From Mucisphaera calidilacus (GTDB taxonomy: Bacteria; Planctomycetota; Phycisphaerae; Phycisphaerales; Phycisphaeraceae), in assembly GCF_007748075.1 (NCBI RefSeq), contig NZ_CP036280.1, positions 1,530,001-1,562,000 on the forward strand: a DNA stretch of 32,000 nt, written 5' to 3'. This document shows positions 1 through 32,000 of the stretch, piece after piece. The stretch's first letter is position 1. Each line of letters begins with the position of its first letter. The position numbers and the translations under genes are program-made. The notes under the pieces are model-generated. The model had not been told where the DNA came from. It did not search any database and was given only the letters and a program-made list of their open reading frames with translations.

Positions 1-1298
1 CCGTCCCGCCCTCCGAGGCCGACGGCACACCCACCCTCGACGCATCCGGACTCCTCGTCACCCCCGGACTCATCGACATCCACGTCCACTTCCGCGAGCC
101 CGGCCAGGAACAGAAAGAAACCATCGCCACCGGCGCCGCAGCCGCCATCGCAGGCGGATTTACCTCCGTCTGCTGCATGCCCAACACCACACCCGCCATC
201 GACGACGACGCCAGCATCGACTTCATCGACGAACGAGCCCACCGCGCCAACCTCGCCAACGTCTTCGCCACCGGATGCCTCACACGAAACCGCGCCGGCG
301 AGGAACTCGCAGAAATCGCCCTCATGGCACAACGCGGAGCCGTCGCCTTCACCGACGACGGCACAGGCGTCGCCTCCGCCGACCTCATGGCCAAGGCCAT
401 GACCTACGTCGGCATGACCGGACGCGCCGTCTTCCAGCACTGCGAAGACCCCACCCTCGGCGGGGGCGCCATGAACGCCGGACCCCTCGCCACGAGGCTC
501 GGTCTCCCCGGATGGCCCGGCCTCGCCGAAGAACTCATGATCCAACGCGACCTCATGATCGCCCGATCACAGAACTACCACACCCGCTGGCACGCACAGC
601 ACATGACCACCGCCAACGGCGCCGAACTCCTCCGACGCGCCAAACACGACGCCGGCGACAACGCACACCGCATCACAGGCGAGGTCTCACCCCACCACCT
701 GCTCCTCACCGAAGAAGCCTGCGCCGAATACGACACCCACGCCAAGATGAACCCGCCCCTCCGCACCACCGCCGACATCGAAGCCCTCCGACAGGCCGTC
801 GCCGACCGCACCATCACCATCCTCGCCACCGACCACGCCCCCCACACCGCCGAGGAAAAAGCCCTCGAGTTCGAGGACGCGCCCTACGGCATCATCGGCC
901 TCGAACCCGCCCTCGCCCTCTACATCAAGGCGCTCATCGACGCCGGCACCATCGACTGGCCAAGACTCATCGAGATGATGACCATCCGCGGAGCCGAACT
1001 CTGCAACCTCGACGGCCGAGGACACCTCGCCACCGGTGCCCACGCCGACGTCACCCTCATCGACCCCAATCTCAACTGGACCATCGACGCCCACGCCTTC
1101 GCCGGCAAGGCCGCCAACTGCCCCTTCCACGGCTGGAACGTCCGCGGACGCGCCGTCGCCACCATCGTCTCAGGCGACATCAAGCTCCTCCGCGACGCCG
1201 ACCGACTCTCCGACGCAACCGCAACACCCCCCGCCGACGAAGCCGCACTGGCAACATTCGCCGCCGAACGCGCCGCCGCACCACCGCGTCAGGGCTGA
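1..1298 (+). CDS. pyrC: dihydroorotase, 5' end cut by window edge (reading frame begins at nt 3)
   Basis: The frame of ORF 177..1298 stays open to nt 3 and translates to ...GLLVTPGLIDIHVHFREPGQEQKETI..., the metal-binding HxH region of dihydroorotases. Downstream it has ...ILATDHAPHTAEEK..., the conserved DHAPH motif. The ATG at 177 is internal. Confidence 0.9.
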   Translation, partial: VPPSEADGTPTLDASGLLVTPGLIDIHVHFREPGQEQKETIATGAAAAIAGGFTSVCCMPNTTPAIDDDASIDFIDERAHRANLANVFATGCLTRNRAGEELAEIALMAQRGAVAFTDDGTGVASADLMAKAMTYVGMTGRAVFQHCEDPTLGGGAMNAGPLATRLGLPGWPGLAEELMIQRDLMIARSQNYHTRWHAQHMTTANGAELLRRAKHDAGDNAHRITGEVSPHHLLLTEEACAEYDTHAKMNPPLRTTADIEALRQAVADRTITILATDHAPHTAEEKALEFEDAPYGIIGLEPALALYIKALIDAGTIDWPRLIEMMTIRGAELCNLDGRGHLATGAHADVTLIDPNLNWTIDAHAFAGKAANCPFHGWNVRGRAVATIVSGDIKLLRDADRLSDATATPPADEAALATFAAERAAAPPRQG

Positions 1299-1302
1299 AC
1301 CC

Positions 1303-3126
1303 TCACTCCCCCTCCGGCCCGACCAGAACCTGCCCCCTGCGCAAACCGTAATACCCGCCCATCGGCTCCGGCACCGTCGCCTTGCCGCCCACGTCACAAC
1401 CCGAGTGCGACAAACGCGAACCCGTGTGCACCGACATGTGCAGGTGCGGCCAGGTCGTGCCCGAATCACCCGACTTGCCGATCACCTCGCTCCGCTTCAC
1501 CCACACCTCCGGCTCGCCATACGCCACCTCCGGGAAACGACGCTCTGAAAGATGCGCATAGATCGACGTCACGCCCTCGCCGTGATCGATCACCACGTAC
1601 TGACCGTAACCATCCTCACGGTGCTGGCACGTCACCACACGACCCGGCGCCACCGCCAGCACCTCCGTCCCGGCGGGCAGATCAAAGTCCAGCGCAAAGA
1701 AATCATTCGCCGCACCATCGCGCCCGATCGTCTTGTGCGTCCACCAACGCGCCTCGTGACCATACCCCTCCTCCACCGTGAACGAACCGCGGAACGGCAG
1801 CGACAAACGCATCCCCTCCGGCAGATGAGCCGTCCCCGACATCAGATCCCTCGGCCGAGGCGTCAGAAATCGCATCTCACGCACCGCCTCCGCCGACGCC
1901 GCCGGCTTGCCCAGCACCGCTCCGCCCACGATCGTCGCCACGTCACGACGCACTGGCGCCGCCTTCCCATCCGCGTCCGACGGGTGCACCCGATTCGTCA
2001 GCAGCACGTAAAACAAATCATGCACCGGGTCCACCCACATCGCCGTGCCCGTGTAACCCGTGTGCCCCACCGACCCCTCGAAGTCCATCACCGCACCCCG
2101 CGACGACCGCGCCGAACCACGCCCTCCAAGCCCCAGCGAACGCCAGCCCGTGCCGTCCGGCAGCGACACCGCCGTCAGCATCAGACCCACCGCCTCCTCC
2201 GACAGCACACGCACCCCGTCCAGTTCGCCACCATTCAGCAGCATCCGGCAGAACCGCGACACGTCCCGCGCCGTCGAAAACAGCCCCGCGTTCCCCGACA
2301 CACCGCCCAGCGCCAACGCCCGCGGATCGTGCACCCGCCCCAGACGCGGCTCGCCGTTGATCACCTCCGTCGGCGCCGTCCGGATCACCAGATCGTCACC
2401 CGGGTTGAACGTCGAGTCGGTCATCCCCAACGGCTCGAAGATGTTCTCCTTCGCATACCGGTCAAACGGCACACCCGAAACCTCCGCCACCACCTCGCTC
2501 AGCAGGATGAACCCCAGGCACGAGTACGCATACCCCGTCCCCGGCTCGTGACGCAGCGCACACGTCGCAACGTTCCGGATCATCGCATCACGCTCACCCC
2601 GGTACTGACTCATGCTGTTCACAGGCGGGATCCCGCTGTGGTGCAGCAGCAGATGACGAATCGTCATCCCCGACTTGTCCGCCTGATCCGCCAGCGCCGG
2701 CAGGTAATCCGCCGCCGGACGATCCAACTCAATCTTCCCCTCGTCCACCAGCTTCAGGACCGACGCCGTCGTTGCGATCGGCTTGGTCAACGACGCCATG
2801 TCAAAAACCGTGTTGACACCCATCCCCACACGCCTGGGCACCACCGCCCGGTCGCCATACGCCTTGCGATAAAACACCCCCCTGCTGTCCCCCACGCACA
2901 GCACCGCACCCGGGATCTCGCCCCGCGCCATCGCCGCAGCCACCGCATCGTCCGCACGCATCAGGTGCTCGTAATCAATCACCCGATCCGTCCGCGGCAC
3001 GATCCCTGTCGCATCCAGCGCCGCAATCGGTTCATCCACCTGCTCAGGCCGAACCGGCTCGCTCTGACCCGACACCGACGCACCCACACTCATCACAACC
3101 ACCAGCAACAGCAAGATCCGTAACAC
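1303..3126 (-). CDS. secreted fusion protein: N-terminal beta-lactamase-fold serine hydrolase (PBP/esterase-like) plus C-terminal M23/LytM-type peptidase domain
   Basis: Serine-hydrolase motifs are SLTKP (SxxK), YAYSCLG and VGHTGYTGT (KTG-like HTG). The C-terminal part has VIDHGEGVTSIYAHL and GDSGTTWPHLHMSVH (M23 HxH). I place the start at GTG 3126 (VLRILLLLVVVMSVGASVSG, signal-peptide-like). The track's 5' extension to 3243 overlaps the upstream gene and is Arg/Trp-rich junk. Confidence 0.75.
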   Translation of the reverse strand: MLRILLLLVVVMSVGASVSGQSEPVRPEQVDEPIAALDATGIVPRTDRVIDYEHLMRADDAVAAAMARGEIPGAVLCVGDSRGVFYRKAYGDRAVVPRRVGMGVNTVFDMASLTKPIATTASVLKLVDEGKIELDRPAADYLPALADQADKSGMTIRHLLLHHSGIPPVNSMSQYRGERDAMIRNVATCALRHEPGTGYAYSCLGFILLSEVVAEVSGVPFDRYAKENIFEPLGMTDSTFNPGDDLVIRTAPTEVINGEPRLGRVHDPRALALGGVSGNAGLFSTARDVSRFCRMLLNGGELDGVRVLSEEAVGLMLTAVSLPDGTGWRSLGLGGRGSARSSRGAVMDFEGSVGHTGYTGTAMWVDPVHDLFYVLLTNRVHPSDADGKAAPVRRDVATIVGGAVLGKPAASAEAVREMRFLTPRPRDLMSGTAHLPEGMRLSLPFRGSFTVEEGYGHEARWWTHKTIGRDGAANDFFALDFDLPAGTEVLAVAPGRVVTCQHREDGYGQYVVIDHGEGVTSIYAHLSERRFPEVAYGEPEVWVKRSEVIGKSGDSGTTWPHLHMSVHTGSRLSHSGCDVGGKATVPEPMGGYYGLRRGQVLVGPEGE

Positions 3127-3136
3127 ACAACACCTC

Positions 3137-3676
3137 TCATTCAGGCAAACGCTCTTCCCCCGCAGGCTCCATCGTTTCCACCTCCACCACGCCACCACCC
3201 GCCTCAGCCTCACGAAACTCCGGGTGCCGAATCTGCCCCCCATTGTTCGCCACCAACGCCATGCCCGGCAGACTCAGCAGCGCCATCGCCAGCGCCCACC
3301 AGGCCACACGCCGCTGCCAACGCGTCCAGAACCAACGCATCCCGATCGCCACCGTCGCCAGCAACGCCGTCACGTACACCGGCTTCGCCCAGCGCTCCGC
3401 CGCGTGGTAATGCTCCTCCAGAATCTTCCACGACGCCTCGTCCAGGTACGCCGCAATCCCCATCCCCTGATCCGCAAGCTCCTTCGCCGTCTCACCCGAC
3501 GACATCACCGCCGCGATCGACCAACCCGACAACGCCACCATCCACAAACCCGTCTCGATCATCAGACGCTGCTTCGCGATCAAACCCACCAGCAAAGGCA
3601 CCGCCCCAAAAAACAAACCCAGCAGCGGGACGTGCACCAGCATCACATGAACATGCGCAGCACTCAGATCCATCAC
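3137..3676 (-). CDS. integral membrane protein of unknown function (about 4 TM helices, possibly DUF2231-like)
   Basis: 179-aa ORF with four hydrophobic segments and a GGQIRHPE motif after the last helix. Its codon style matches other minus-strand genes in this arm. No confident family assignment. Confidence 0.6.
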   Translation of the reverse strand: MMDLSAAHVHVMLVHVPLLGLFFGAVPLLVGLIAKQRLMIETGLWMVALSGWSIAAVMSSGETAKELADQGMGIAAYLDEASWKILEEHYHAAERWAKPVYVTALLATVAIGMRWFWTRWQRRVAWWALAMALLSLPGMALVANNGGQIRHPEFREAEAGGGVVEVETMEPAGEERLPE

Positions 3677-3690
3677 AAATAACCTCTCAA

Positions 3691-4221
3691 CTAGCCCTGC
3701 GCACGACGCGCCAGAATCAGATCACACAACTCACGCACCGCACCAAAACCGCCCCGACGCTCCAGCACAAAGTCCGCCGCCGCCAGCGCCGGCTCGTAAG
3801 CATCCGCCACCGCCACGCCGCAACCCGACGCCTCGATGCACGCCACGTCATTCACGTCATTGCCCACGTAAACCACCGAATCCAACCCGAACCCCAGCCG
3901 CTCCGCCCACGACCGCAGCTTCGGCAGCTTGTCATCAATCCCCTGCACGCACTCGATCCCGAGCTTCTTGCACCGAGCCGCCACCACCGGGTTCCGCTCC
4001 TTCGACAGCACGCCCACCGCGACCCCCGCGTCACGCACCATCTGCAACCCCAGCCCGTCACTCCGGTCGCACACCACCGACTCCAGACCATCCTCGCGAA
4101 CGATCACGCGGTTGTCCGTCAACACCCCGTCAAAATCACAGATCAACGCACGCACCGGGCTGGGCAGCCGCTCCACACGCAACGCCAAATGCTCCGCCGT
4201 ACTCTCAGCTGATTCAGTCAT
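3691..4221 (-). CDS. kdsC: HAD-IIIA phosphatase, KDO-8-phosphate phosphatase (KdsC/YrbI) family
   Basis: Length is 176 aa. HAD motifs are LICDFDGVLTDNRV (DxDGxLTD) and VVYVGNDVNDV. Size and motif spacing are typical of KdsC. Confidence 0.75.
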   Translation of the reverse strand: MTESAESTAEHLALRVERLPSPVRALICDFDGVLTDNRVIVREDGLESVVCDRSDGLGLQMVRDAGVAVGVLSKERNPVVAARCKKLGIECVQGIDDKLPKLRSWAERLGFGLDSVVYVGNDVNDVACIEASGCGVAVADAYEPALAAADFVLERRGGFGAVRELCDLILARRAQG

Positions 4222-4240
4222 CCCCAGAGTCTAACCGAAC

Positions 4241-5374
4241 CTACGCCGCGCCCGCCTTCTCACTTGCCCCGCTATCGATACCCAGTTGCACCATCGGCCC
4301 GTGCGGCTTCTTCGCCTCCTCCGCCAGACGCTTACCCGCCGACGGATTCGCGTACAGATTGAACAGCATCGCCTTCACCGTCCCCCACATCCCGCCAAAC
4401 GACGAGAACGTGTGGTCCACCGCCGAAGGCTCATAACCGCAGTGAACCATGCACTGCTGGCACGCCGTGTTCCCCGACGCCCGGCCGTAGTTCTCCCAGT
4501 CTGTTGTCTCCATCAGCTCCCGGAAACTCTCCACGTAACCGTCCTGAATCAGATAGCACGGCTTCTGCCACCCGAACAGGTTGTACGTCGGGTTCCCCCA
4601 AGGCAGGCACTCATACTCACGACGGCCCATCAGAAACTCCAGAAACAGCGGGCTCTGATTAAACACCCAACGCTTCTTACGGTTGCTCAGCAGCATCTCG
4701 AAGAACGACGTCGTCTTCTCACGCTCCGCCATGAAGTTCGCCTGATCCGGAGCCTTCGGATACGCGTACCCAGGCGACACCATCATCCCCTCAACACCCA
4801 GGTCCATCATCGTGTCGAAGAAACCACGCAACGCATTCGGGTCAGCGCCGTCAAAAATCGTCGTGTTCGTCGTCACGCGGAAACCACGCTCCACCGCCAG
4901 CCGGATCCCCGCCGTCGCCTTCTCGTACGTCCCCTCTCGGCACACCGCGAAGTCATGATGCTCCCCCTCACCATCCATGTGCACCGAGAAAGTCAGGTAC
5001 TTGCTCGGCGAAAACTTCCCCTCCTCCAAAGCCTTCTTCAGCAGGACCGCGTTCGTGCACAGGTACACGTACTTCTTCATCGCGATCAGACCCTCGACGA
5101 TCTCCGTGATGTCCGGGTGCAGCAACGGCTCACCACCCGGGATCGACACCATCGGTGCCCCGCACTCCTCCGCCGCGTCCAGACACTGCTGAACACTCAA
5201 CTCACGCTTGAGCACGTGCGCCGGGTACTGAATCTTCCCGCAACCCGCACACGCCAGATTGCAGCGGAACAGCGGCTCCAGCATCAGCACCAGCGGGTAA
5301 CGCTTGCGACCCGACCAACGCTGCTTCAACACGTAAGAAGCCACCGTCCACATCTGCGATACAGGTACACCCAT
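4241..5374 (-). CDS. hpnH: radical SAM protein, adenosyl-hopene transferase HpnH-like (hopanoid side-chain biosynthesis)
   Basis: The N-terminal sequence ...YVLKQRWSGRKRYPLVLMLEPLFRCNLACAGCGKIQYP... matches the characteristic HpnH CxxxCxxC region. At 377 aa the length is as expected. Confidence 0.8.
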   Translation of the reverse strand: MGVPVSQMWTVASYVLKQRWSGRKRYPLVLMLEPLFRCNLACAGCGKIQYPAHVLKRELSVQQCLDAAEECGAPMVSIPGGEPLLHPDITEIVEGLIAMKKYVYLCTNAVLLKKALEEGKFSPSKYLTFSVHMDGEGEHHDFAVCREGTYEKATAGIRLAVERGFRVTTNTTIFDGADPNALRGFFDTMMDLGVEGMMVSPGYAYPKAPDQANFMAEREKTTSFFEMLLSNRKKRWVFNQSPLFLEFLMGRREYECLPWGNPTYNLFGWQKPCYLIQDGYVESFRELMETTDWENYGRASGNTACQQCMVHCGYEPSAVDHTFSSFGGMWGTVKAMLFNLYANPSAGKRLAEEAKKPHGPMVQLGIDSGASEKAGAA

Positions 5375-5500
5375 GCCTGGTCCTTATCTCTAGGCGCTCA
5401 ACACGCTTATTCTCGTTCGACGGAACCCGTCCCCAACACCCTATACTCCCGATCAACACCCCTCAGGTCAACCATAGCCACCCACATCCACGCCAGCCGC

Positions 5501-6037
5501 ATGACATCAACACACCTCTCACTCCCCAATCACACCGTCCACTGGCACGATCACCCGCCCGACGGACCCGACACCGTCGGCACCGCCGACACCCCCCTCG
5601 GCACCATCCGCCTCCTCGCCCGAGGCCACACCATCCGCGCCTTTGACCTCCTCGAACGCCACAACCACCTCACACCCGCACCCGACAACGCCACCACCGA
5701 CGACGATCTCGCCACCGACATCCTCGGCCACGTCTTCGACGACCAGCCCCACACCTTCCACGTCGCCCCCCAAGGCACCGCCTTCCAGAAAGCCGTCTGG
5801 CACGAACTCCTCAACATCCCCCATGGCAGCACCGCCACCTACGCCGACATCGCCCGACGACTCCACCGAACACCCTCAGCCGCCCGCGCCGTAGGCGGAG
5901 CCGTCGGCGCCAACCCCGTCGCCATCCTCATCCCCTGCCACCGCGTCATCGGATCATCCAACCAACTCACCGGCTTCGGCTGGGGACTCGAACGCAAAGA
6001 AACCCTCCTCCGCGCCGAAGGCATCACCCTCTTCTAA
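5501..6037 (+). CDS. ogt: methylated-DNA--protein-cysteine S-methyltransferase
   Basis: C-terminal sequence is ...FQKAVWHELLNIPHGSTATYADIA...AVGGAVGANPVAILIPCHRVIGS..., containing the PCHRV active site. The ATG at 5501 is in frame within track ORF 4286..6037. The upstream 1.2 kb of that ORF is antisense shadow of hpnH. Confidence 0.88.
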   Translation: MTSTHLSLPNHTVHWHDHPPDGPDTVGTADTPLGTIRLLARGHTIRAFDLLERHNHLTPAPDNATTDDDLATDILGHVFDDQPHTFHVAPQGTAFQKAVWHELLNIPHGSTATYADIARRLHRTPSAARAVGGAVGANPVAILIPCHRVIGSSNQLTGFGWGLERKETLLRAEGITLF

Positions 6038-6490
6038 AACCCATCATCACTACCCTCCGGATGCCTTCCACTGACTCGGTGCCACGGACCTGTGTAGTGC
6101 AACGAAGCAGGTCCGTGCTCTCCACAACCTTGCCATCACCCTCCTCTAAAACCCATCATCACTGCCCTCCCGGGTGCCTTCCACCTGCTCGGTGCCACGG
6201 ACCTGTGTAGTGCAACGAAGCAGGTCCGTGCTCTCCACAGCTTTGCCATCACCCTCCTCTAAAACCCATCATCACGGCCCTCCGGATGCCTTCCACTGAC
6301 TCGGTGCCACGGACCTGTGAAGTGCAACGAAGCAGGTCCGTGCTCTCCACTCCATTGCCATCACCCTCTTCGAAAACCCATCATCACGGCCCTCCGGATG
6401 CCTTCCACTGACTCGGTGCCACGGACCTGTGTAGTGCAACGAAGCAGGTCCGTGCTCTCCACAACCTTGGCATAACCCTCTTCGAAAACC
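6022..6490. repeat. tandem repeat, 112-113 bp unit x 4 plus a 20-bp partial fifth copy; each full unit carries a 10-bp-stem hairpin
   Basis: Units start at 6022, 6134, 6247, 6359 and 6471 (partial). All begin CATCACCCTC(T/C)TC(T/G)AAAACCCATCATCAC. Each full unit contains CACGGACCTG-15 nt-CAGGTCCGTG (first copy 6083-6117). Unit 1 starts inside the last 16 nt of ogt. Confidence 0.95.
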
Positions 6491-6500
6491 CCTCCCCCCC

Positions 6501-6860
6501 TTACGACACCCCGTGCTCCCGCAGCACATCCAACTCCACAAACTCCAACGCCGACATGTGCGTCGCCTCCAGAACCACAGGCGGCGCAACCCCCGCCTCC
6601 ATCGCCTCACGCCAACGCTCCACACACAGGCACCACCGGTCACCCGCCTTCAATCCCGGAAACCCATACTCAGGCCGAGGCGTCACCAGGTCATTCCCAC
6701 GCGATACCGTGAACGCCAGAAAGGCCTCAGTCATCACCGCACACACCGTGTGCAACCCCACATCGTCCGGCCCCGTCTGACAACACCCGTCACGGTAAAA
6801 CCCCGTCACCGGGTCCGTCCCGCACACCGCCAACTCCGTACCCAACACATTCTTCGCCAT
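6501..6860 (-). CDS. DUF2237 family protein
   Basis: 119 aa. MAKNVLGTELAVCGTDPVTGFYRDGCCQTGPDDVGLHTVCAVMT...GDRWCLC...APPVVLEATH matches the conserved DUF2237 pattern as I remember it. Confidence 0.8.
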   Translation of the reverse strand: MAKNVLGTELAVCGTDPVTGFYRDGCCQTGPDDVGLHTVCAVMTEAFLAFTVSRGNDLVTPRPEYGFPGLKAGDRWCLCVERWREAMEAGVAPPVVLEATHMSALEFVELDVLREHGVS

Positions 6861-6909
6861 GACGAACCCACTCCCAATTCACACGCAACCTGAGGCGCAA
6901 ATCAATCAA

Positions 6910-7791
6910 TTAACGACTTGTATTCAGCCGCACCGCATGCCCCGCACGACCCCTCACACCCACGTCCGTCACGAACACACGACCCGCCCCCGGCTGAGCC
7001 TCAAGCTCATCATCCCTCAGCCCCGCCGACGCCGTCGTGATCACCAGCCGATCCAGGCCCTCACCCGCAAAACAGCAACTCGTCACACGCTCCGCCGGCA
7101 CCGCCACCTCACGCAGCTGCTCCCCCGTCTCCCCGTCAAAACAACGCACGCACGACCCGCCCCAGAACGCCACCCACGCATGACCATCCGCGTCCAGGCA
7201 CATCCCGTCCGGACCGCCCGCATCCTCGCCAAACACCACCAGAGGCTGACGGTTGCTGATCGCACCCCGCTCCATGTCAAAGTCAAACACGTCCACACGC
7301 TTCGTCGGCGTGTCGATGTAATACATCCGCGAACCGTCCGCCGACCAGTCCAGACCGTTCGAGATCGTCACCCCCGTCAGGTGCGTCGCGATCCCACGAC
7401 CATGCTCATAACAGTAAAACGACGCCGAACCCGCACCACGCTCCGTCGCAATCGTCCCCACCCAGAAACGACCCCGAGGGTCAGCCTTCCCGTCGTTCAT
7501 CCGGAACGGCACGTCCCGCAGCACATCACTCACCACCTCACGCTCGTCCCGATCCCAGTCATAAAGCATCAACCCATCTTCATACGCCAGCAGCCACCGC
7601 CCGTCGTCGCAAGGCGAAGCAGCACCCAGCAGCTCCACCAACGCCCGCCACTCAAACCCCGACCCGTCCAGCCCGACACGACACAACGCGCCCCTCTGGA
7701 TGTCCACATACCACAACATCCCCTCATGCCACACCGGCCCCTCAGCCAGCAACGCCCGGTACTCTGGTGTAATCACGTCCATGCGAGGCAT
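6910..7791 (-). CDS. SMP-30/gluconolactonase/LRE family protein
   Basis: 293 aa. The N-terminal LAEGPVWHEGMLWYVDIQRGAL, plus NDGKADPRGRFWVGT and SNGLDWSADGSRMYYIDT, are typical of beta-propeller lactonases. Confidence 0.8.
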   Translation of the reverse strand: MPRMDVITPEYRALLAEGPVWHEGMLWYVDIQRGALCRVGLDGSGFEWRALVELLGAASPCDDGRWLLAYEDGLMLYDWDRDEREVVSDVLRDVPFRMNDGKADPRGRFWVGTIATERGAGSASFYCYEHGRGIATHLTGVTISNGLDWSADGSRMYYIDTPTKRVDVFDFDMERGAISNRQPLVVFGEDAGGPDGMCLDADGHAWVAFWGGSCVRCFDGETGEQLREVAVPAERVTSCCFAGEGLDRLVITTASAGLRDDELEAQPGAGRVFVTDVGVRGRAGHAVRLNTSR

Positions 7792-7822
7792 CTTAACGCC
7801 TCAACACACAGCCGACGCACAC

Positions 7823-8188
7823 CTACGCCTTCGGATTCGGACCGTGCTTGTTCTCGCCCGGTTCGCTGTCGAGAACCATCAGAATCAGCAACGCAATCGC
7901 GCCGATCACGGGAACAAACACAATAAGCATCAGGAACCCACTCTTGCCCGAATCATGCAGACGCCGAACACCCACCGCAAAACTGGGAATCAGCACGGCC
8001 AGAGCAAAGATCGACCCGAGAACGCCAATCCCTATCTCAGCATTATACGTGCCCATCAGCCCGTCAATGAACGCCAGCACAAACGCCAGCAGCGTGTTGC
8101 ACAGCACAAACGTCCAGTACTCCTTTCGCCGCGCTCGTCCCGTGAATACCGCATACTTCTCGAGAGGTTCCAGATACCAGTCCATCAT
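7823..8188 (-). CDS. DUF805 domain inner-membrane protein
   Basis: 121 aa. KYAVFTGRARRKEYWTFVL... and RRLHDSGKSGFLMLI... are hallmark DUF805 motifs, flanked by TM helices. Confidence 0.8.
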   Translation of the reverse strand: MMDWYLEPLEKYAVFTGRARRKEYWTFVLCNTLLAFVLAFIDGLMGTYNAEIGIGVLGSIFALAVLIPSFAVGVRRLHDSGKSGFLMLIVFVPVIGAIALLILMVLDSEPGENKHGPNPKA

Positions 8189-8320
8189 GTTCCCTTCATT
8201 TGAATGAACAACGACGCCTCAGAACGAATCTCTGCAATCACTTGATGACATCATATCATTCAACTGCCCGTCGCCAGCACCCCCTTGATCCACCAACCAA
8301 CCCTGACCTAGTCTGCCCTC

Positions 8321-24194: not shown

Positions 24195-24271
24195 GGAGCT
24201 ATTTTAGCCGAGTCGGGGCGTGGTGACAGGGTGATTCGGGACGCGGTGTGAATGTAGTGAGGGGCGTGGGA

Positions 24272-25354
24272 TCAGAGGTTGGCGAGTCGTTGGGCGCGGT
24301 CTTCGGCGATGAGGGCATCGACGAGCGGGGCGAGTTTGCCGGCCATGACTTCCTGGAGGTTGAAGCTCTGGTTGAGTCGGTGGTCGACGGCGATGTTGTC
24401 TTTATAGCGGTAGGTTCGGATGCGTTCGCTGCGTGCGCCGGAGCCGATCATGGAGGACCGCTGTTCGGATCGCTGGGCGTCGGCCTGCTCTCGGGCGTGC
24501 TGGTAGAGCCGGGCGCGGAGGAGTTGCCAGGCCTTCTCGCGGTTCTGCTGCTGGCTCTTGGACTCCTGCATGCGGACCTCGATGCCGGTGGGTTTGTGGA
24601 TGAGGTGGACGGCGGTGGCGACCTTGTTGACGTTCTGGCCGCCGGGGCCTTGTGCGGTGGTGATGTGGATGTCGACGTCTTCGGGTGCGATCTGGACTTC
24701 GACTTCTTCGGGTTCGGCGAGGACGGCGACGGTGGCGGTGGAGGTGTGGACGCGTCCCTGGGTTTCGGTGGCGGGCACGCGTTTGACGCAGTGGACGCCT
24801 CCTTCGTAGCCGAGTCCCTGCCAGACGGCTTCGCCTTTGACGCTGACGGTGGCGGCGCGGATGCCGCCCTGCTCGCCGGGCGAGACGGCCATGAGTTCGA
24901 ATTTCCAGCGTCGTTCGGCGGCGAATCGCTGGAACATCTCGAGGATGTCGCCTGCCCAGAGCGCGGCCTCGTCGCCTCCGGTTCCGGCGCGTACTTCGAG
25001 GATGACGGCGGCGACGGATCGGTCGTCGGCGGTGACGAGTTCGTGGCTGATTTCGTCGAGGAGTTGTTCGGCCTGGTCGCGTAGTCGCGGCAGTTCGTCT
25101 TTGGCGAGCGCGGTGAGTTCGGGGTCTTCGGCGTCGTCGATGAGTTGCTGGTGCTGGTCGGCCTCGTCGGTGAGTTTGCGCCAGTGTGCGAAGCGTGTGG
25201 CGACGGGTTCGAGGGCGGCTCGGCGTACGGAGAGCTGCCTGAGTCTGTCGGGGTCGCGCAGGACGTCCGCGGACTGGAGTTGCTGGTTGATCCCGGCGAA
25301 TTCTTCGCTTAGCGCGTCGAGCTTGCCGATGAGGCGCTGCTGAAAGTCAGCCAT
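24272..25354 (-). CDS. prfA: peptide chain release factor 1
   Basis: It has [12 protein letters not shown] (RF1 PxT tripeptide motif) and [10 protein letters not shown] (GGQ). Length is 360 aa. Confidence 0.95.
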
Positions 25355-25387
25355 GCCGGCCGTTCACCGTAGCGTGAGGGGTTGGTC

Positions 25388-25651
25388 TCAGCCCTTTTTC
25401 TTGAAGTAGCCGCCGGCGAACTTCCGCTGGAACTTCTCGACGCGACCTGCGGTGTCGAGGAACTTCTGCTTGCCGGTGAAGAAGGGGTGCGAGGCGGAAG
25501 AGATGTCCACCTTGACGAGGGGGTATTCCTTGCCGTCGTCCCATGTGGTGGTGTCTTTGGTCTGGACGGTGGAGCGCGTGATGAAGCGCTGTCCCGCGGA
25601 GACGTCCTCGAAGACAACGGGTCGGTAGGTTGGGTGGATGTCCTTCTTCAT
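25388..25651 (-). CDS. rpmE: 50S ribosomal protein L31, type B (Cys-less, zinc-independent form)
   Basis: [16 protein letters not shown]...HPFFTGKQK... starts at ATG 25651. There is no cysteine in the 87 aa. The track's longer start at 25735 adds non-conserved residues and overlaps the divergent neighbour. Confidence 0.9.
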
Positions 25652-25726
25652 GGCAAGCTCCTGGGCCTTTCCGGCCCCATCAGTCGAGCCGAATAATGTA
25701 ACCTTTTCCGGGTCAGGAGCCAAATC

Positions 25727-26650
25727 GTGACCCAAGAAACGTCAACGCCTACCTATCACACCCTTCTCAACGGCCAGTTCTGCGAGCCGGGCGAGGCCCG
25801 AATTTCGCTGGACGATGCTGGGTTCCAGCATGGTATCGGACTCTTTGAGACGCTTTATGTGCAAAATAGTCGGGTTTTTCGCGGTCGAGAGCATCTGAGT
25901 CGGCTAGCTAACTCCGCTCGTGAGCTGGGGTTACTGGAGGATCTGGATGTTGACCCGCTGCTGGCCTCGCTCGATAAGACGATTGAACATAATCACTTAG
26001 ATCGCGCACGGCTGCGTCTGACGCTGACGGCGGGTGCGGTGAGTCTGCTTCCGGGGCGTGAGGCACCGGCGCGGCCGATGCCGACACTGGCGATTCAGCC
26101 GTCGCCGGTGACGGCGTATGACCCTCAGTATTTTGAGGATGGTGTGCTGGTGCTGATTGCGCCGTCGCATGTGAATCCGCTGGACCCGACGGCGGGTCAC
26201 AAGACGCTGAACTACTGGCAGCGTCTGCGGTCGCTTCGTCAGGCGGCGGCGGCGGGTGCCGGCGAGGCGGTCTGGCTGTCGGTGACGAATCACCTGGCGT
26301 CGGGTGCGATCAGCAATCTGTTTCTGGTGCGTGACGACACGATTCAGACGCCTATCGCGCATGGCGAGGAGCCGGAGGGTTCGCTTCAGGCACCGGTGCT
26401 GCCCGGGGTGACGCGTGGCGCGGTTCTGGAGTGTGCCGAGGCGTTGGGGATCACGGCGGTGAAGGCGATGCTGACGATTGATGATCTGCTGACGGCGGAC
26501 GAGGTGTTTCTGACGAACTCGGGTTGGCAGGTGCTGCCGGTGACGCGTGTGGAGCGTTCGCAGATCGGTGACGGTCGGCCCGGGCCGGTGACGGGTCGGG
26601 TGCGTGAGGCGGTGTTGGGGTTGATCGAGCGGGAGACGGCGCAGAGGTGA
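25727..26650 (+). CDS. class IV (fold type IV) PLP-dependent aminotransferase family: aminodeoxychorismate lyase or branched-chain/D-amino-acid aminotransferase-like
   Basis: 307 aa with a GTG start. It has [22 protein letters not shown] (candidate PLP Lys), [10 protein letters not shown] and EVFLTNS. Substrate class cannot be decided by eye. Confidence 0.75.
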
Positions 26651-26748
26651 TGCGGCGTTTTTCGACGAGTCTGGATTGGTTTTGAGGTTGGGAGGGTTTC
26701 ACACACAGCAACCTCGGGGACTCAGTTGTGGTGTGCCAGCCGGGGGTG

Positions 26749-27771
26749 TCAGGTGAGTGTGATGTTGAGTTGGTAGTCGCGGGATTCGCCGGGCTGGATC
26801 CGGGGTCGGGGGTTTGATCCGTCGGAGTCGGGTCCGGGTGTGGGTCCGACGAAGGGTTCGATTCCGCAGACGTATCCGGCGGGTCCGACGTGCTGCCAGA
26901 CGGTGAGGCCCGGGAGTTGTTGAGTGTGGTAGGCGAAGGTGAGTTTGAGTTTGCGGTGCGGGTTAATGACGGAGGCTTGGGCGAGTCCCTGGGCGTCGGA
27001 TTCGGGTTGGATGACGACGCCGCCCTCGCCTGCGCCGGCGTGGTCGTCGCGGGGGGCGGTGATGTGCTTGAAGGCGTTGGGGTCCTGATCGTGGAGGAGG
27101 GTTCCCCAGCGAGACTGGATGTCGCCTTCGATATCGAGTTGTGTGCCTTCGGTGAGGAGCGGGTGTCCGAGGTTGCAGTGGTAGAGGAGGGCTTCGGGTA
27201 TGGGTGTGTCGCCTCGGTTGGTGAGTGTGTCGTGGATGTGGATGGCGGGTTGGCCGAGCGTTCCGCTGATCGAGCGTTTTGTTTCGACGCAGGGGCCGAA
27301 CATGGAGGTCTGGTCGATGCGGAGTTTGAGGGTGAAGTCGCGTTTGCCTGTGCGGGGGTCGGCGTTGTCGACGGCGAGGATGGCGGCTGGCGTGAGGTGG
27401 TGTCTTCCGTGGACGCCTGCCTGCCAGGGTTCGCCTCCTTCGACGGGTCTTCCGACGTGGAGGGGTCCGCAGGTGGTGACGAGCCCCCCCGCCCAGCTCG
27501 CGAGCCATGCCATGTCGACGCCGTCGGCGCGTTCGGCTGGTTTGAGGCCGTTCTGGGTGAGGTAGGCGAGTGGACAGTCCATGTAGGTGGCGTCGTAGAT
27601 GTCGCCGCCTCGGTCGAGCGCGACGGTGTATCGGAGTCCGGCGCCGGTGTCGATGAAGGCGACGCGTGTGTTCTGTCCGCCTAGGGGCTGTGGTGCGTCG
27701 AGTGTTCCGGTGCGGATGCCGCCGGCCTGTGCGGGGCATTCCATGAGGGCGTAGTCGATGGTTGTGGGCAT
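26749..27771 (-). CDS. DUF4432 / aldose-1-epimerase-like superfamily protein
   Basis: 340 aa and beta-rich. Segments such as FIDTGAGLRYTVALDRGGDIYDATY and GVHGRHHLTPA resemble DUF4432 proteins found in sugar loci. It lies downstream of the AraC gene on the same strand. Confidence 0.6.
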   Translation of the reverse strand: MPTTIDYALMECPAQAGGIRTGTLDAPQPLGGQNTRVAFIDTGAGLRYTVALDRGGDIYDATYMDCPLAYLTQNGLKPAERADGVDMAWLASWAGGLVTTCGPLHVGRPVEGGEPWQAGVHGRHHLTPAAILAVDNADPRTGKRDFTLKLRIDQTSMFGPCVETKRSISGTLGQPAIHIHDTLTNRGDTPIPEALLYHCNLGHPLLTEGTQLDIEGDIQSRWGTLLHDQDPNAFKHITAPRDDHAGAGEGGVVIQPESDAQGLAQASVINPHRKLKLTFAYHTQQLPGLTVWQHVGPAGYVCGIEPFVGPTPGPDSDGSNPRPRIQPGESRDYQLNITLT

Positions 27772-27819
27772 GTTCGCGGCTCCGAGGGTGCTACAGCTTA
27801 AGGCGGAATTGTCTGGTGT

Positions 27820-28665
27820 TCATGTCGCTGTCTGGCCGTGGCCCTTGTGTTTGCGGAGGTTGGTGGGCGAGTGTCCGGTGTGCTGTCTGACGTGTCGTGC
27901 GAGGGAGTGTGTGGAGGTGTAGCCTGACTGCCTTGCGATGTCTGTGATGGCGAGGGTGGTCTGTGTGATGAGGTTGACGGCGGCTTCGACGCGGTGCCTG
28001 GAGAGGTAGGCGTGGGGCGTTTCGCCGACGCGTTCGTGGAAGACGCGACAGAGGTGTTCGCGTGAGATGCCGAATCGGTCGGCGACGCGTTTGATGGACC
28101 ATGGTGCGAGAGGCTGTCGGACGAGTTGATCGACGGCCTGCTGTGCGGGGGGGAGTTGTTCGCGTCGTGTCTGTCGGACGTGGTCGAAGAGTCTGGTGAT
28201 GTAGTTGTAGGCCAAGGCGGCGATCTGGGTCGGGTCGGTGCCTCGCGCGGGTTCGGTGGCGTCGATGAGTTGGTCGAGGTTGTCGAGGAGGGTGGGGTTG
28301 GAGGCGGTTTCGATGACGGGTCCGCGTATGGCTCGCAGCGCGTCGGCGTGTTGGTGGACGCCTGCGCCGACGAGACCGATGAAGGCGCATCGGTAGGGTC
28401 CGTCGTTGGGGTCGGGGCGGTAGTAGGTGGTGGGTTCGCCGTAGCGGAAGATGATGAGCGATCCCTGGGGTGCGTGGTGCTGGCCGTTGCTGTCTTCGAT
28501 GACGAGTCGGCCGAGGGTTGAGGCCTGGATGACGACGATGCCAGCGGGCTGTCGGTGTGTGTTGTCGAACCAGTAGGCTCGTCCGGCGGGGTTGTGTTCG
28601 CGGCCGCACTGGCGGAGTTCCCAGAGTGTGGGGGAGTTGGCCGGTATTCGGGGGCGGGCACGCAT
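27820..28665 (-). CDS. AraC family transcriptional regulator
   Basis: The C-terminal HTH pair is IKRVADRFGISREHLCRVFHERVGETPHAYLSRHRVEAAVNLI...ITDIARQSGYTSTHSLARHVRQHTGHSPTNLRK. ATG 28665 is preferred over GTG 28692, because the extra 9 codons (AGA AGA AGT ... ATA) are atypical for this genome. Confidence 0.85.
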   Translation of the reverse strand: MRARPRIPANSPTLWELRQCGREHNPAGRAYWFDNTHRQPAGIVVIQASTLGRLVIEDSNGQHHAPQGSLIIFRYGEPTTYYRPDPNDGPYRCAFIGLVGAGVHQHADALRAIRGPVIETASNPTLLDNLDQLIDATEPARGTDPTQIAALAYNYITRLFDHVRQTRREQLPPAQQAVDQLVRQPLAPWSIKRVADRFGISREHLCRVFHERVGETPHAYLSRHRVEAAVNLITQTTLAITDIARQSGYTSTHSLARHVRQHTGHSPTNLRKHKGHGQTAT

Positions 28666-28765
28666 TATCACATATTGCACACTTCTTCTCACACAATCAA
28701 GTTATTCATGGGTTTTATTCGTGATATACCTCACGAACTGGCTTTTGTTCTGATCACCCCCCTGC

Positions 28766-30226
28766 ATGAGGTTTTTTGCGATGGCGACTGAAGAGAAGGC
28801 GGGTCATGCGGCCCACATGAAGAAATCGGACGAGCGTGGTCTGCCTGGCGAGCTGCCGCGGCCGATCAACCTGACGTTTCTGGGTGCGGGTTCGATGTTC
28901 TGCCCGGTGCTGAGTCGTGACCTTGTGTTGATTCCGGGTGGTGCTCGGGGTGAGATCCGTCTGGTGGATGTTGATGCTGATCGTCTGGCGACGATGCACA
29001 AGCTGGTGGGCAAGCTGGTGAAGGATCTGGGGCGCGAGGATGACTGGGTGGTCACGTCGCACACGGATCGTCGTGCGGCGTTGCCTGGGACGGACTACGC
29101 GGTGTGCTGCGTTGAGGTTTCGGGCCCGGCGTGTGTGGCGATGGAAAACGACATCCCGCTGAAGTACGGGGTGGATCAGTGCATCGGCGACACGATGGGT
29201 CCGGGCGGCCTGTTCAAGGGTTTGCGGACGATCCCGGTGTTTCTGGACATCCTGCGTGACATGAAGGAGCTGTGTCCGCGTGCGTTGATGCTGAATTACA
29301 CGAACCCGATGAGCATGATGTGCCTGGCGGCGGGTCGTGCTGTGCCTGAGATTTCGGTGGTGGGTCTGTGCCACAGCGTGCAGGGGACGAGTCATCAGTT
29401 GGCGGAGAAGGCGGGCGTGCCTTACGAGGAGCTTGCGTGGGAGTGCGCGGGGATCAATCACCTGGCGTGGTTCACGCGGCTGGAGCACCGGGGAGAGAAT
29501 CTTTATGAAAAGGTTCTGTACCGGCAGTTCCGTGAGCTGGTGGATCAGGCGATGGCGGCGGAGACGCCTGACGATGAGTTGCAGGACATTGTGCGTGCGG
29601 ACATGTGTCTGAACTTTGGGGCGTACATCACGGAGAGTTCGGGTCACTTGTCGGAGTACCTGCCTTATTATCGCAAGTCGGATTCGGGTCGGAAGCTGCT
29701 GCGTTCGGGGTATTGCGGTGAGAGTCGTTTTTATGCGTCGAACTGGCCGACGTGGCGTTCGGATTCGGACAAGCACCGGCTGGAGATCATCGAGGGGACG
29801 CGTGATTTCGATCTGGAGCGTTCGTGGGAGTACGCGTCGTGGATCATCGAGGCGTGCGAAAAAGATGTGCCTTACCGGATTCACGGGAACGTGATGAACA
29901 ACGACGGGAGTTCGGGTGAGGCGGGCAAGCTGATCACGAATCTGCCGGGTGATGGTTGTGTGGAGGTGGCGTGCGTGATCGATCAGAACGGTGTGAACCC
30001 GACGCGTTACGGTGCGTTGCCGGCGCAGATGGCTCATATCTGCGCGAGCAACATGGCGTTCTTTGATCTGGCGGCGACGGCGGTGGTTGAGGGTTCCCGG
30101 GAGGCGGCGACGCACGCGTTGATGCTGGACCCGCTGACGCAGGCGGTCTGCACGCCTGGGGAAATCAAGTCCATGTCGGATGAGATGTTTGATGCAGAAT
30201 CGGAGTACCTGGGGCATTATGCTTAG
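28766..30226 (+). CDS. glycoside hydrolase family 4 (NAD+/Mn2+-dependent alpha-galactosidase/alpha-glucosidase)
   Basis: It has INLTFLGAGSMFCP (Rossmann GxGS), MLNYTNPMSMM and VGLCHSVQGT (the GH4 Cys-His metal site). The true start may be ATG 28817 (MKKSDERG...). Confidence 0.85.
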   Translation: MRFFAMATEEKAGHAAHMKKSDERGLPGELPRPINLTFLGAGSMFCPVLSRDLVLIPGGARGEIRLVDVDADRLATMHKLVGKLVKDLGREDDWVVTSHTDRRAALPGTDYAVCCVEVSGPACVAMENDIPLKYGVDQCIGDTMGPGGLFKGLRTIPVFLDILRDMKELCPRALMLNYTNPMSMMCLAAGRAVPEISVVGLCHSVQGTSHQLAEKAGVPYEELAWECAGINHLAWFTRLEHRGENLYEKVLYRQFRELVDQAMAAETPDDELQDIVRADMCLNFGAYITESSGHLSEYLPYYRKSDSGRKLLRSGYCGESRFYASNWPTWRSDSDKHRLEIIEGTRDFDLERSWEYASWIIEACEKDVPYRIHGNVMNNDGSSGEAGKLITNLPGDGCVEVACVIDQNGVNPTRYGALPAQMAHICASNMAFFDLAATAVVEGSREAATHALMLDPLTQAVCTPGEIKSMSDEMFDAESEYLGHYA

Positions 30227-30262
30227 CGGCGTGATGGTTCGTGTCTTCGTGTCCAGGTTGCC

Positions 30263-31906
30263 ATGAAGTATCTATTCGGCTCGATATTTGCGGCGCTGGT
30301 TGTGGCGAGTTTTGTGATCCGCGCGACGTTCCCGGACACGGCGACGCGTGTGCCGGTGCTGTACTGGGTGACGGACCCGGCACCGGCGCGTGTGGAGCAG
30401 GTGAATCGGTTCCATCAGTGGCTGATCGAGACCGGGCGGTACACGGAGGATGTGATTGCGGATGAGGCGGGTCTGGCTCGTTTTCGGCGTGAGGTTCCGG
30501 AGGCGTTGATTGATGACATCATCGTGACGCAGCCGGCGTTGGCGGGTGTTCTGGGGGATGAGCCTGACCTGTCGGTGTTGCCTGTGACGGTGCGGGTTCC
30601 GGCGTGCGAGATGCGTCTGGACACGGCGAACCGTGATGACACGAAGCAGAAGGTTCAGGCGGTGTCGGGTGTGGCGGCGGACGTGATGGACGTGTTCAAC
30701 GGTTCGAGCATGCGGATGTTCGCGGCGATGGGGGTTCTGCGTGACGTGACGGAGGATGCGGAGCGTCTGGGTTTCGGGTTGTCGGAGACGTATGCGGCGC
30801 TTCGTCCTGAGGTGATTGTTGACGGTCGTCAGTACATGTACCCGTGCAATGTGTCGTCGTCGTATTACACGGTGAACAACGACCTGTTTCGTTCGCTGGG
30901 GATGGAGCCACCGCCTCGTCGCTGGACGTTTGATGAGTTTGAGCGGATCGGTATTGCGTTCTGCGAGCGTGCGAATGAGGGCAAGCGTCGTCGGGACACG
31001 TTCTTTCTGAACAAGATCGACTGGACGCGGATGCATCGGGGGTTGGGGGTGTCTCGTTTCAACGAGACGATGACGGCGTGTGTGCTGGACTGCGCGGGAT
31101 ATGCGGAGGGGATGGAGCGTGGCAAGCGTTGGATGTATGAGATCAATATCATCCCGACGCCTGACGATGTGGATGCGTTTGCGTCGGCGCGGACGTATGG
31201 GGGGGCGGACCCGGCGATGTTCGGCGCGGGCCATTTCGGCATGATCGAGGGTGGTCGGTACTGGCTGATGCAGTTCCGGGAGTTTGATGAGTTGGGGGAG
31301 TTGGGGTTTGCGGAGCCGCCTCACGGGGGTTTTCCGAACACGACGATCGGGACGCGTGGGGCGCTGGTTTACAAGGGGACGCGTTACCCTGAGCTGGCGA
31401 CGTTGTTTCTGGCTTACCTGGCGAGCGAGAAGTACAACAATCTGATTGTTGAGGATTCGGATGCGTTGCCGCCTAACCCGGTGTACGCGCAGAGCGAGGC
31501 GTATCTTCGTCCGGCGGATCATCCGAACGAGTGGCTGATACACGGCCCGGCGTTCGAGATTGCGCAGACGATTGCGATCGGTGACGAGTACAGCCCGTTC
31601 GTGCTGCCGACGGTGGTGGAGGCGGAGATCAACTATCACCGTGATCGCTTTATTACGGGTCAGAGCACGGCGGCGGAGGCGGCGCGGAACACGGCGTCTG
31701 CGATCAACCAGGAGATCGCGAAGCGGTTGGGTCGTGAGCCGCGGCTGGTGCCTGAGTATGAGGAGCGTGTCGAGCGTCAGGCGCGGATTGATGCGTTGAA
31801 GGCGTCGGGGGAGCCGATTCCGGCGTCGTGGATTGATAACCCGTTTCTCAAGGCGTATTACAGGCATCTGGGTATGACGCGTGACGATGACGGGGGTGGG
31901 CTGTGA
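30263..31906 (+). CDS. extracellular solute-binding protein of a carbohydrate ABC transporter (N-terminal membrane anchor or signal)
   Basis: 547 aa. It has an N-terminal hydrophobic helix, and its composition and length fit family-1 sugar SBPs. It is followed by a translationally coupled permease gene (GTGA overlap). Confidence 0.6.
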   Translation: MKYLFGSIFAALVVASFVIRATFPDTATRVPVLYWVTDPAPARVEQVNRFHQWLIETGRYTEDVIADEAGLARFRREVPEALIDDIIVTQPALAGVLGDEPDLSVLPVTVRVPACEMRLDTANRDDTKQKVQAVSGVAADVMDVFNGSSMRMFAAMGVLRDVTEDAERLGFGLSETYAALRPEVIVDGRQYMYPCNVSSSYYTVNNDLFRSLGMEPPPRRWTFDEFERIGIAFCERANEGKRRRDTFFLNKIDWTRMHRGLGVSRFNETMTACVLDCAGYAEGMERGKRWMYEINIIPTPDDVDAFASARTYGGADPAMFGAGHFGMIEGGRYWLMQFREFDELGELGFAEPPHGGFPNTTIGTRGALVYKGTRYPELATLFLAYLASEKYNNLIVEDSDALPPNPVYAQSEAYLRPADHPNEWLIHGPAFEIAQTIAIGDEYSPFVLPTVVEAEINYHRDRFITGQSTAAEAARNTASAINQEIAKRLGREPRLVPEYEERVERQARIDALKASGEPIPASWIDNPFLKAYYRHLGMTRDDDGGGL

Positions 31907-32000
31907 GTCGCAAGGTGAAGGATTTCGCGGCGGGGGTTGCGTTTCTGGCGCCGAACATCGCGGGCGTGCTGGTGTTCACGGTGTTCCCGGTGGTGGTGAG
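31903..32000 (+). CDS. ABC transporter permease (sugar type), 3' end cut by window edge
   Basis: GTG at 31903 overlaps the SBP stop codon. The translation VSRKVKDFAAGVAFLAPNIAGVLVFTVFPVVV resembles the N-terminus of MalF/UgpA-type permeases. Confidence 0.55.
   Translation, partial: MSRKVKDFAAGVAFLAPNIAGVLVFTVFPVVV

Follow-up and report, generated by a model that had tools for sequence, protein, structure and literature searches.

What makes the genes of one chromosomal region choose between two almost opposite sets of synonymous codons according to the strand that they occupy? The region is a 32,000-bp stretch of the Mucisphaera calidilacus chromosome (contig NZ_CP036280.1, positions 1,530,001 to 1,562,000), referred to here as the window, in which one strand of each chromosome arm is enriched in G and T and its complement in C and A. 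Strain Pan265 is a free-living, aerobic, mesophilic heterotroph with an optimum of 30-33°C and a closed chromosome of 3,486,541 bp (63.9% G+C, 2,856 protein genes), and its species description mentions neither skew nor an origin (PMC8882080). RimO, Rho, TrpB, PrfA, HpnH, and GGT of the window are exact matches to M. calidilacus proteins in the series QDU71394 to QDU71412, the numbering of which confirms the gene order in the window and shows that its + strand is the orientation of the record. Our data cover these 32 kb of M. calidilacus and, from relatives, a few pieces of 5-22 kb. Full-text searches for work on skew in Phycisphaerae, Planctomycetota, and Mucisphaera turned up no account of the asymmetry (subscription journals and the SkewDB tables were outside their scope). 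The pattern is probably explained by a replication-linked mutational strand asymmetry, possibly arising from lagging-template damage, with an origin-type switch inside the window and one flipped gene block, block A.

Skew was computed on the + strand. At positions 1-15600, GC skew was -0.331 and AT skew was +0.225; at 22971-32000, the values were +0.252 and -0.210, and at 15601-22970 they were -0.067 and +0.089. GC skew was negative in all 1-kb segments between 1 and ~15 kb (-0.22 to -0.41), close to zero at 15.6-22 kb, and positive in all segments at 23-32 kb (+0.13 to +0.34), with the sign of AT skew opposite to that of GC skew along the profile. The binomial sampling standard deviation of a 1-kb GC skew is ~0.04 (about 640 G+C), and chance is therefore excluded as the source. 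The excess of G over C, or the reverse, amounts to 16-21% of all bases. Third-position GC skew on the + strand was -0.40 to -0.77 in left-arm genes of either strand and +0.30 to +0.74 in right-arm genes of either strand (per-gene values exclude ogt, an out-of-frame row). No trend was seen along the 15.6-kb and 9-kb arms, a span of <1% of the replichore that is too short to judge a gradient. The original prediction of a strong A+C versus G+T asymmetry, independent of gene orientation, is thus borne out, and the absolute GC skew of the arms is 0.25-0.33 rather than below about 0.1. Its boundaries were placed correctly, with a step at 15.6 kb and the cumulative-skew minimum at 22.7-22.8 kb, and its four 60-nt hand counts of G and C were right except at 29001-29060, where C is 11 and not 10.

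The left arm (1..15598) has an A/C-rich + strand and a G/T-rich - strand (GC skew -0.33, AT skew +0.23) and is read as the leading-strand sequence, on its G/T-rich - strand, of a leftward-moving fork. It carries, on both strands, pyrC (cut by the window edge), bla/M23, a membrane protein gene, a kdsC-like gene, hpnH, ogt, and the DUF2237 gene, followed by SMP30, DUF805, ggt, tRNA-Pro, FHA-PP2C, ubiE, M48, a gene for a B12-binding protein, and PilZ. In the right arm (22974..32000), the + strand is G/T-rich (GC skew +0.25, AT skew -0.21), and the genes, again on both strands, are trpB, prfA, rpmE, and those of a class IV aminotransferase, DUF4432, AraC, GH4, and SBP.

When the 23 genes of the window were pooled by coding strand, G/T-rich or A/C-rich, the codon tables of the two sets differed (chi2 = 3844, 58 degrees of freedom [df]). 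At fourfold-degenerate sites, genes on the G/T-rich strand had G.717, T.195, C.068, and A.021, and genes on the A/C-rich strand had the near-exact complement, C.766, A.155, G.061, and T.018, corresponding to a fourfold GC skew of ~0.83 in either gene orientation. The same held within each arm: in the left arm, + genes had C.79 and A.16 and - genes had G.73 and T.18, and in the right arm, + genes had G.70 and T.22 and - genes had C.74 and A.15. In individual codon families, the G/T-strand set used GCG for 87% of Ala, CTG for 69% of Leu, ACG for 90% of Thr, and GAG for 94% of Glu, versus GCC (78%), CTC (90%), ACC (79%), and GAA (77%) in the A/C-strand set. Strand alone decides which of two nearly non-overlapping synonymous codon sets a gene uses. 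Codon usage that failed to separate once all genes were counted would have looked quite different from this clean split, and the examples named beforehand (pyrC, hpnH, bla/M23, GH4, SBP, trpB, and prfA) each checked, with their gene identities supported. The long Arg/Pro/His/Thr-rich shadow open reading frames (ORFs) that had been noticed are also real; they arise because the A/C-rich strand has 2.4-fold fewer stop trinucleotides.

The asymmetry extends to non-coding DNA, with GC and AT skews of -0.29 and +0.17 on the left and +0.28 and -0.30 on the right. Skew at codon positions 1 and 2 is far weaker than at fourfold sites and shares their direction, and in the G/T-coded set Val, Met, Cys, and Glu are raised and Gln, His, Thr, and Ile are lowered. 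Orthologues were examined in pieces of four related genomes: the closest relative, a Logan assembly with ~80% protein identity (L083/L086); two metagenome-assembled genomes (MAGs; L082/L089 and L084/L085), which are 96% identical over the 4 kb of overlap between L082 and L084; and a Mucisphaera sp. (L081; ENA ERZ26867466, positions 2,747,621-2,769,177 of a 3.25-Mb contig). Proteins of the window, L081, and L082 share 71-74% identity. The orthologues in L082, L084, L089, and L083 are equally extreme in skew, third-position skew of left-arm genes in L084, L089, and L086 is 0.5-0.84, and the codon set of each orthologue matches the strand that it occupies; the coding-strand skew of prfA in three species is -0.58, -0.44, and +0.38. 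The peak at fourfold sites and in non-coding DNA, the independence of transcription, the orthologues that follow their strand, and the part-converted state of block A (see below) support the conclusion that the bias is mutational, not selective. They likewise support the earlier proposal of a powerful strand-specific mutational or repair bias.

Across 83 loci sampled from the order, absolute GC skew had a median of 0.07 and was at least 0.2 in 12 of them. Fourfold counts in MAGs were made with a crude gene caller that reproduces the annotated values of the window. In an unrelated MAG (L013, 2001-21143), one gene set had G.78 versus C.09 and the other had C.79 versus G.07. Together with L020, L025, and L071, it belongs to Phycisphaerales MAGs outside the Mucisphaera group in which GC skew is equally extreme and A/T skew is weaker, indicating that the two skew components can be uncoupled. 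Fourfold sites had C.43-.54 and G.33-.43 in relatives of low skew, among them a MAG that bears the label Phycisphaera mikurensis. The trait is common to the close relatives and patchy in the order, and most sampled Phycisphaerales loci are without it.

The substitutions behind the skew were estimated with a 12-rate strand-specific model at 1,817 fourfold sites (1,035 in control genes and 782 in block A); its values describe substitution and not raw mutation. The fitted rates per branch on the G/T-rich strand were 0.70 for C>G versus 0.02 for G>C, 0.29 for C>T versus 0.04 for G>A (~7-fold), 0.73 for A>G versus 0.21 for T>C (~3.5-fold), and 0.60 for A>C versus 0.23 for T>G. Strand-symmetric transversions were rejected (likelihood-ratio test [LRT] 110, df 4), as were strand-symmetric transitions (LRT 39.7, df 2) and symmetry between C and G (LRT 35.5, df 1); under the last constraint, the fit runs via C>A and then A>G. 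Deamination-type transitions and a C-to-purine transversion flux are thus both strand-asymmetric, and C>G fits best. Without recourse to a model, total G+C at fourfold sites is seen to be similar in the two gene sets (.79 and.83), and purines stand at 74:26 on the G/T-rich strand; the skew must therefore consist mainly of an exchange of C for G and A for T, which needs asymmetric transversions. These results point to more than deamination-type transitions as the basis of the pattern.

In Escherichia coli, Bhagwat et al. reportedly found in 2016 that C>T is higher on the lagging-strand template, which agrees with the G/T-rich strand being the leading one. The G/T-rich strand would then have the leading-strand sequence and would be the parental strand that lies exposed while it serves as template for lagging-strand synthesis. 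The step in which we place least weight is that damage to this single-stranded template would cause the excess of C>T and A>G there. The same damage would also yield the large C-to-purine flux, possibly through bypass of abasic sites after uracil removal, and weak or missing repair in the lineage would amplify it. Instead of damage to exposed template, the cause might lie in polymerase error spectra, strand-biased mismatch repair, or oxidised guanine, the last giving G>T or G>C changes in the A/C-rich strand. Of the fitted asymmetries, the largest is indeed that of a transversion (C>G, as above), the C>A of the next-best model is G>T on the complement and of the 8-oxoguanine type, and the 74:26 purine excess is impossible from transitions alone. 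The equally extreme G/C exchange of L013 beside its weak A/T skew also shows that the components are separable. However, C>T and A>G are themselves strongly asymmetric in the direction expected of single-strand deamination, and the only gene of the window that bears on repair or polymerases is an ordinary ogt. We consider such a biochemical cause possible but lean towards exposed-template damage.

The cumulative GC and keto skews have their minima at 22727 and 22811, and the window contains one switch of origin-type polarity, from - to +, at ~22.2-23.0 kb. The last left-arm gene is a hypothetical gene (21593..22198, +; homologue of h171 in L083) with + strand third-position skews of -0.51 (GC) and +0.57 (AT); its match in L083 (8652-9024, 82% identity) has the opposite relative orientation. 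The polarity switches within the following PGPGW gene (-) and its 61-bp spacer (22460..22973): the third-position skew of PGPGW is -0.23, and that of the next gene, trpB (22974-24194), is +0.55, the first of right-arm type. Between the hypothetical gene and PGPGW lies a non-coding segment of 261 bp (22199..22459; GC 52%, the lowest G+C in the middle region), which we propose with low confidence as a candidate origin region, 0.3 kb to the left of the cumulative minimum at 22727-22811. It has four TKTGCGCV boxes within 158 bp, although the 12 boxes in the whole window equal the chance expectation, and an A-rich CGAAAC-type repeat of 10-bp period occupies 22305-22345. As a general rule, G is enriched on the leading strand, and by this rule forks diverge where the skew of the + strand turns from - to +. 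The sign change at ~22.2-23.0 kb would accordingly be the point where forks diverge, at or beside an origin; the switch is called an origin because of this rule and the C>T asymmetry.

Markers of an origin or terminus were sought at several levels. The canonical DnaA box TTATCCACA with at most one mismatch had 2 matches in the window versus 2.4 expected, none of them at the switch, and the consensus may not be that of Planctomycetota; with at most two mismatches, nothing notable appeared in the intergenic regions of the window, L081, and L082. A tblastn search with E. coli DnaA gave no match in the window or in 82 loci, there is no dnaN within the 32-kb window, and no dif-like ATAA-N6-TTAT core was present in the window, L081, or L082. 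The TKTGCGCV cluster was not found in relatives and is thus not a conserved origin motif, and the segment at 22199-22459 had no DNA match in L081 or L082. Relatives show the switch itself. A switch of the same polarity adjoins rho in L082, L008, and L010, flanked in all three by low-skew zones of 3-6 kb, and its position relative to the genes varies: in L082, it extends over ~3 kb (8000-11000) across rho and rimO, and in L083 (1-9087), the whole 9-kb contig is of one sign and the switch lies beyond the homologue of the hypothetical gene. At the PGPGW site of other genomes, L082 carries a foreign-looking DUF7453 gene (12465-13793, third-position G+C 0.56).

L081 (1-21557) has the ancestral gene order with reversed polarity. 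Its skew is +0.27 at the class IV aminotransferase end and declines gradually, an ~8-kb stretch at 12-20 kb has no GC or A/T signal, and the last two genes have third-position skews of -0.33 (SMP30) and -0.45 (DUF2237). The reverse complement of a -/+ profile is again -/+, so that no inversion can give this reversal. In L081, either forks converge at what is an origin-type locus in its relatives, or the sign of the bias has flipped. A 320-amino-acid ORF without a Pfam match occupies the gap between the hypothetical gene and PGPGW in L081, the site of the candidate origin in the window. Protein searches with hpnH and bla/M23 returned no match from the 3.25-Mb contig of L081 among their results. 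A bolder idea, which we regard as doubtful, is that in Mucisphaera and some few further Phycisphaerales lineages DNA is replicated or repaired in a way not shared by other bacteria studied, for example with a very long-lived single-stranded lagging template, with an activity at the fork that damages or edits DNA, or with a key repair pathway lost, and that the origin of L081 has moved to the far side of its chromosome. If this were true, substitution rates, including C-to-G, would differ 3- to 30-fold between strands and the skew would record replication history; in L081, it would record an ancestral origin locus turned into a diffuse zone of fork convergence.

The opposite polarity of L081 at the same locus means that one assignment must be unusual, and the switch in the window would be a terminus if the leading strand of this lineage were C/A-rich and forks converged at ~22-23 kb. 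The lack of DnaA boxes, dnaA, and dnaN in the 32 kb would suit a terminus, and rpmE, prfA, and trpB would then run co-directionally with replication. Against this, C>T is ~7-fold and A>G ~3.5-fold higher on the G/T-rich strand, as expected of a lagging-strand template, the same polarity recurs by rho in L082, L008, and L010, and the dif-like site was missing from the window, L081, and L082. Gene orientation as a whole is uninformative, with 12 of the 23 genes co-oriented with replication if the switch is an origin. No bacterium is known to have a C-rich leading strand. We therefore hold a terminus at this position to be unlikely, and continue with the switch as a probable origin.

Block A comprises rimO (-), rho (+), and a gene for a conserved 928-amino-acid protein (-) at 15617..21407, with a GC skew of ~-0.05. 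Its left border, between PilZ and rimO (15599..15616), coincides with a sharp skew step: over 18 bp, third-position skew passes from -0.71 in PilZ to +0.03 in rimO. In L081, L082, and L083, the homologue of the hypothetical gene, not PilZ, comes after rimO. Its right border (21408..21592) separates the 928-amino-acid gene from the hypothetical gene, and a third breakpoint lies between trpB and prfA (24195..24271); in the relatives, the 928-amino-acid gene follows prfA, the hypothetical gene follows rimO, and trpB adjoins PilZ. The full order in L081, L082, and L083 is class IV aminotransferase, rpmE, prfA / 928-amino-acid gene, rho, rimO / hypothetical gene ... (PGPGW) trpB / PilZ, B12-binding, M48, ubiE, FHA, and the order of the window in the same direction is prfA / trpB, PGPGW, hypothetical gene (inverted) / 928-amino-acid gene, rho, rimO / PilZ. 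The new junctions in the window are therefore 15598/15617, 21407/21593, and 24194/24272, one of them at the exact skew step. The hypothetical gene is inverted relative to block A, and trpB and PGPGW are the only segments of the window that align to L081 in the same orientation.

The composition of block A was compared with L083 at 782 shared fourfold sites. In L083, these sites had A.22, C.70, G.05, and T.03; in the window, they had A.04, C.32, G.46, and T.17. Only 37% of C sites were retained relative to L083 in block A versus 83% in neighbouring control genes, and DNA identity to L083 was 71% versus 82%, with similar protein identity. In L083, rimO, rho, and the 928-amino-acid gene have the full skew (-0.64 to -0.75), and hence nothing intrinsic to these genes resists it. 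The third-position A/T skew of the block (rimO +0.73, 928-amino-acid gene +0.65, and rho +0.30) already has the sign of the left arm, which indicates that the block now replicates as part of the left arm and not in both directions. These results show that the composition of block A is that of a former A/C-type strand being overwritten, and indicate that the block changed replication strand in the M. calidilacus lineage. In the block, A and T are at the new equilibrium, and the C-to-G exchange is ~60% complete. Re-equilibration would thus proceed with A/T first and the exchange of C for G lagging behind. Two nested inversions around the origin, centred between the hypothetical gene and PGPGW, could have produced this arrangement (X A h ^ P Y -> X P' ^ h' A' Y -> X P' ^ h' A Y), with only block A left on the opposite replication strand. 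The fit dates the flip back to the split from the L083 lineage, and the part-converted state need not be recent.

The flatness at 15.6-22.97 kb could have another cause, such as recently acquired foreign DNA, selected codons, two-way replication (from two origins or from a broad initiation zone), or an assembly chimera. In favour of this, both borders of the block are sharp, the switch in L082, L008, and L010 likewise sits among low-skew zones of 3-6 kb, and the timing parameter of the fit lies at its bound, so that a single recent flip is too simple. However, rimO and rho are core genes, syntenic in all relatives and hence not foreign, and their full skew in L083 means that selection does not protect them. 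A zone replicated both ways should show neither skew, as L081 does at 12-20 kb, whereas block A has the A/T sign of the left arm. A chimera is at odds with a closed isolate genome and with the similar switch in independent MAGs. Three specific candidates were rejected: an rRNA operon (Rfam and ARAGORN find only tRNA-Pro in the window), codon selection that keeps the skew of rho and rimO low (full skew in L083), and a foreign origin of the block (synteny across relatives). Such causes are, in our view, quite improbable, and a flipped block A is retained. Selection, whether as translational codon preference, mRNA purine loading, or transcription-coupled repair, is a very improbable source of the asymmetry as a whole: amino-acid use differs between the gene sets, and codon-level selection is visible on the G/T-rich strand, where GGC (20%), GGT (37%), and CGT (46%) are retained above other C/T-ending fourfold codons, but arm and strand set the sign, so that opposite-strand genes of one arm have opposite coding-strand skews, the skew is nearly full in non-coding DNA, orthologues swap codon sets between species, and the two codon sets are base-complementary mirror images.

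Several observations weigh against a replication-linked asymmetry with an origin-type switch as set out here. The reversed polarity of L081 means that either origins move or polarity is an unsafe guide in this group. The switch at rho/rimO in L082 occurs without rearrangement relative to L083, a wandering that falls outside the inversion model. No independent origin marker is at hand, as canonical DnaA boxes and dnaA are lacking and the candidate region is unconserved, and the skew of PGPGW (-0.23) misfits its right-arm position, though the gene is small. In the substitution analysis, the model fit is imperfect (G2 = 35.9, df 17), a C>A>G path ranks next after direct C>G, and the flip-timing parameter sits at its bound of 1.0, so that one recent flip is too simple.

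The window and its relatives contain further features. A tandem array at 6022-6491, in the non-coding gap between ogt and the DUF2237 gene, has 4.2 copies of a 112-bp unit with 93% matches, and each unit bears a hairpin GGACCTG...CAGGTCC. A second array at 10278-10565 (44-bp unit, 6.5 copies) adjoins tRNA-Pro(GGG) at 10588-10663. Between this tRNA gene and SMP30 (7823-10663), ggt and DUF805 are present only in M. calidilacus and not at this place in L081 or L084; both are fully skewed, and any insertion there must therefore be old. L084 has a VapBC toxin-antitoxin pair (5876-6420) inserted between SMP30 and DUF2237. The 928-amino-acid protein (18621-21407, -) has an N-terminal hydrophobic segment and no Pfam match; it is conserved beside rho in every one of the four Mucisphaera-like genomes (identity 64-70%, with a mean column identity of 78%), and two scans of metagenome collections gave only two short, distant contigs. 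The start of rimO (15617-17152, -) differs between GenBank and RefSeq (488 versus 511 amino acids), with the longer form starting from TTG at 17152.

The cause of GC skew is described in the SkewDB paper as 'not yet satisfactorily explained'. A culturable free-living bacterium with 6-8 times the typical signal, and with sister lineages that lack it, makes a comparison of repair and replisome genes possible. The skew is strong and is rewritten after a strand change, and it can thus date inversions around the origin and may reveal a relocated origin in a congener. In practice, long false ORFs appear on the A/C-rich strand, gene calling, the detection of horizontal transfer, and binning can be led astray by codon-usage statistics that are split in two, and the skew biases amino-acid composition and identity measures between relatives.

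Among known systems, the window resembles ordinary Lobry-type skew, in which the leading strand has G>C and T>A in non-Firmicutes. In both, the sign is constant along an arm, independent of gene orientation, and flips once, G and T are enriched together, and the effect is strongest at third positions and in non-coding DNA. They differ in size: the SkewDB paper puts the G-C excess at 'typically around 2.5%', in contrast to 16-21% here and a fourfold GC skew of ~0.83. The earlier description of the asymmetry as far outside the usual bacterial range agrees with this figure and with our local sample of relatives, which are its basis, rather than a ranking of the whole database.

Most genomes with strand-separated codon usage are AT-rich. 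Separate codon usage on the two strands was described first in Borrelia burgdorferi and later in about ten small genomes, mainly of host-dependent organisms; the listed cases also include Treponema pallidum, Chlamydia, Buchnera, Blochmannia, Bartonella, Tropheryma, Lawsonia, and Ehrlichia (PMC2671203, PMC3023944, PMC4613354). The earlier strand-separated genomes are all under 2 Mb (PMC4613354), and 7 of 11 belong to obligate intracellular parasites. As in the Borrelia type, the replication strand is the main determinant of synonymous choice in the window, and amino-acid use is shifted too. By contrast, M. calidilacus is a free-living, aerobic mesophile with a 3.49-Mb genome of 63.9% GC, and its codon sets barely overlap.

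Vertebrate mitochondrial DNA, with a fourfold GC skew (~0.8) similar in size to that of the window, is closest in magnitude and strand pattern. It too has a G+T-rich and an A+C-rich strand, with an excess of C>T and A>G on the strand that probably stays single-stranded for longer. However, the window belongs to a bacterial chromosome with two mirrored arms, and the mitochondrial pattern is usually ascribed to transitions, whereas the window requires strand-asymmetric transversions (LRT 110, df 4). In the APOBEC/UNG/REV1 signatures of eukaryotes, deamination of C in the lagging template and bypass of abasic sites lead to C>T plus C>G. The joint rise of C>T and C>G on what would be the lagging-strand template of the window may be analogous, although A>G is also raised here and sequence context is confounded by codon constraints. 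The bias in the window is thus of a known kind, and its novelty lies in its size, in its occurrence in a free-living, GC-rich, 3.5-Mb host, and in the asymmetric transversions.

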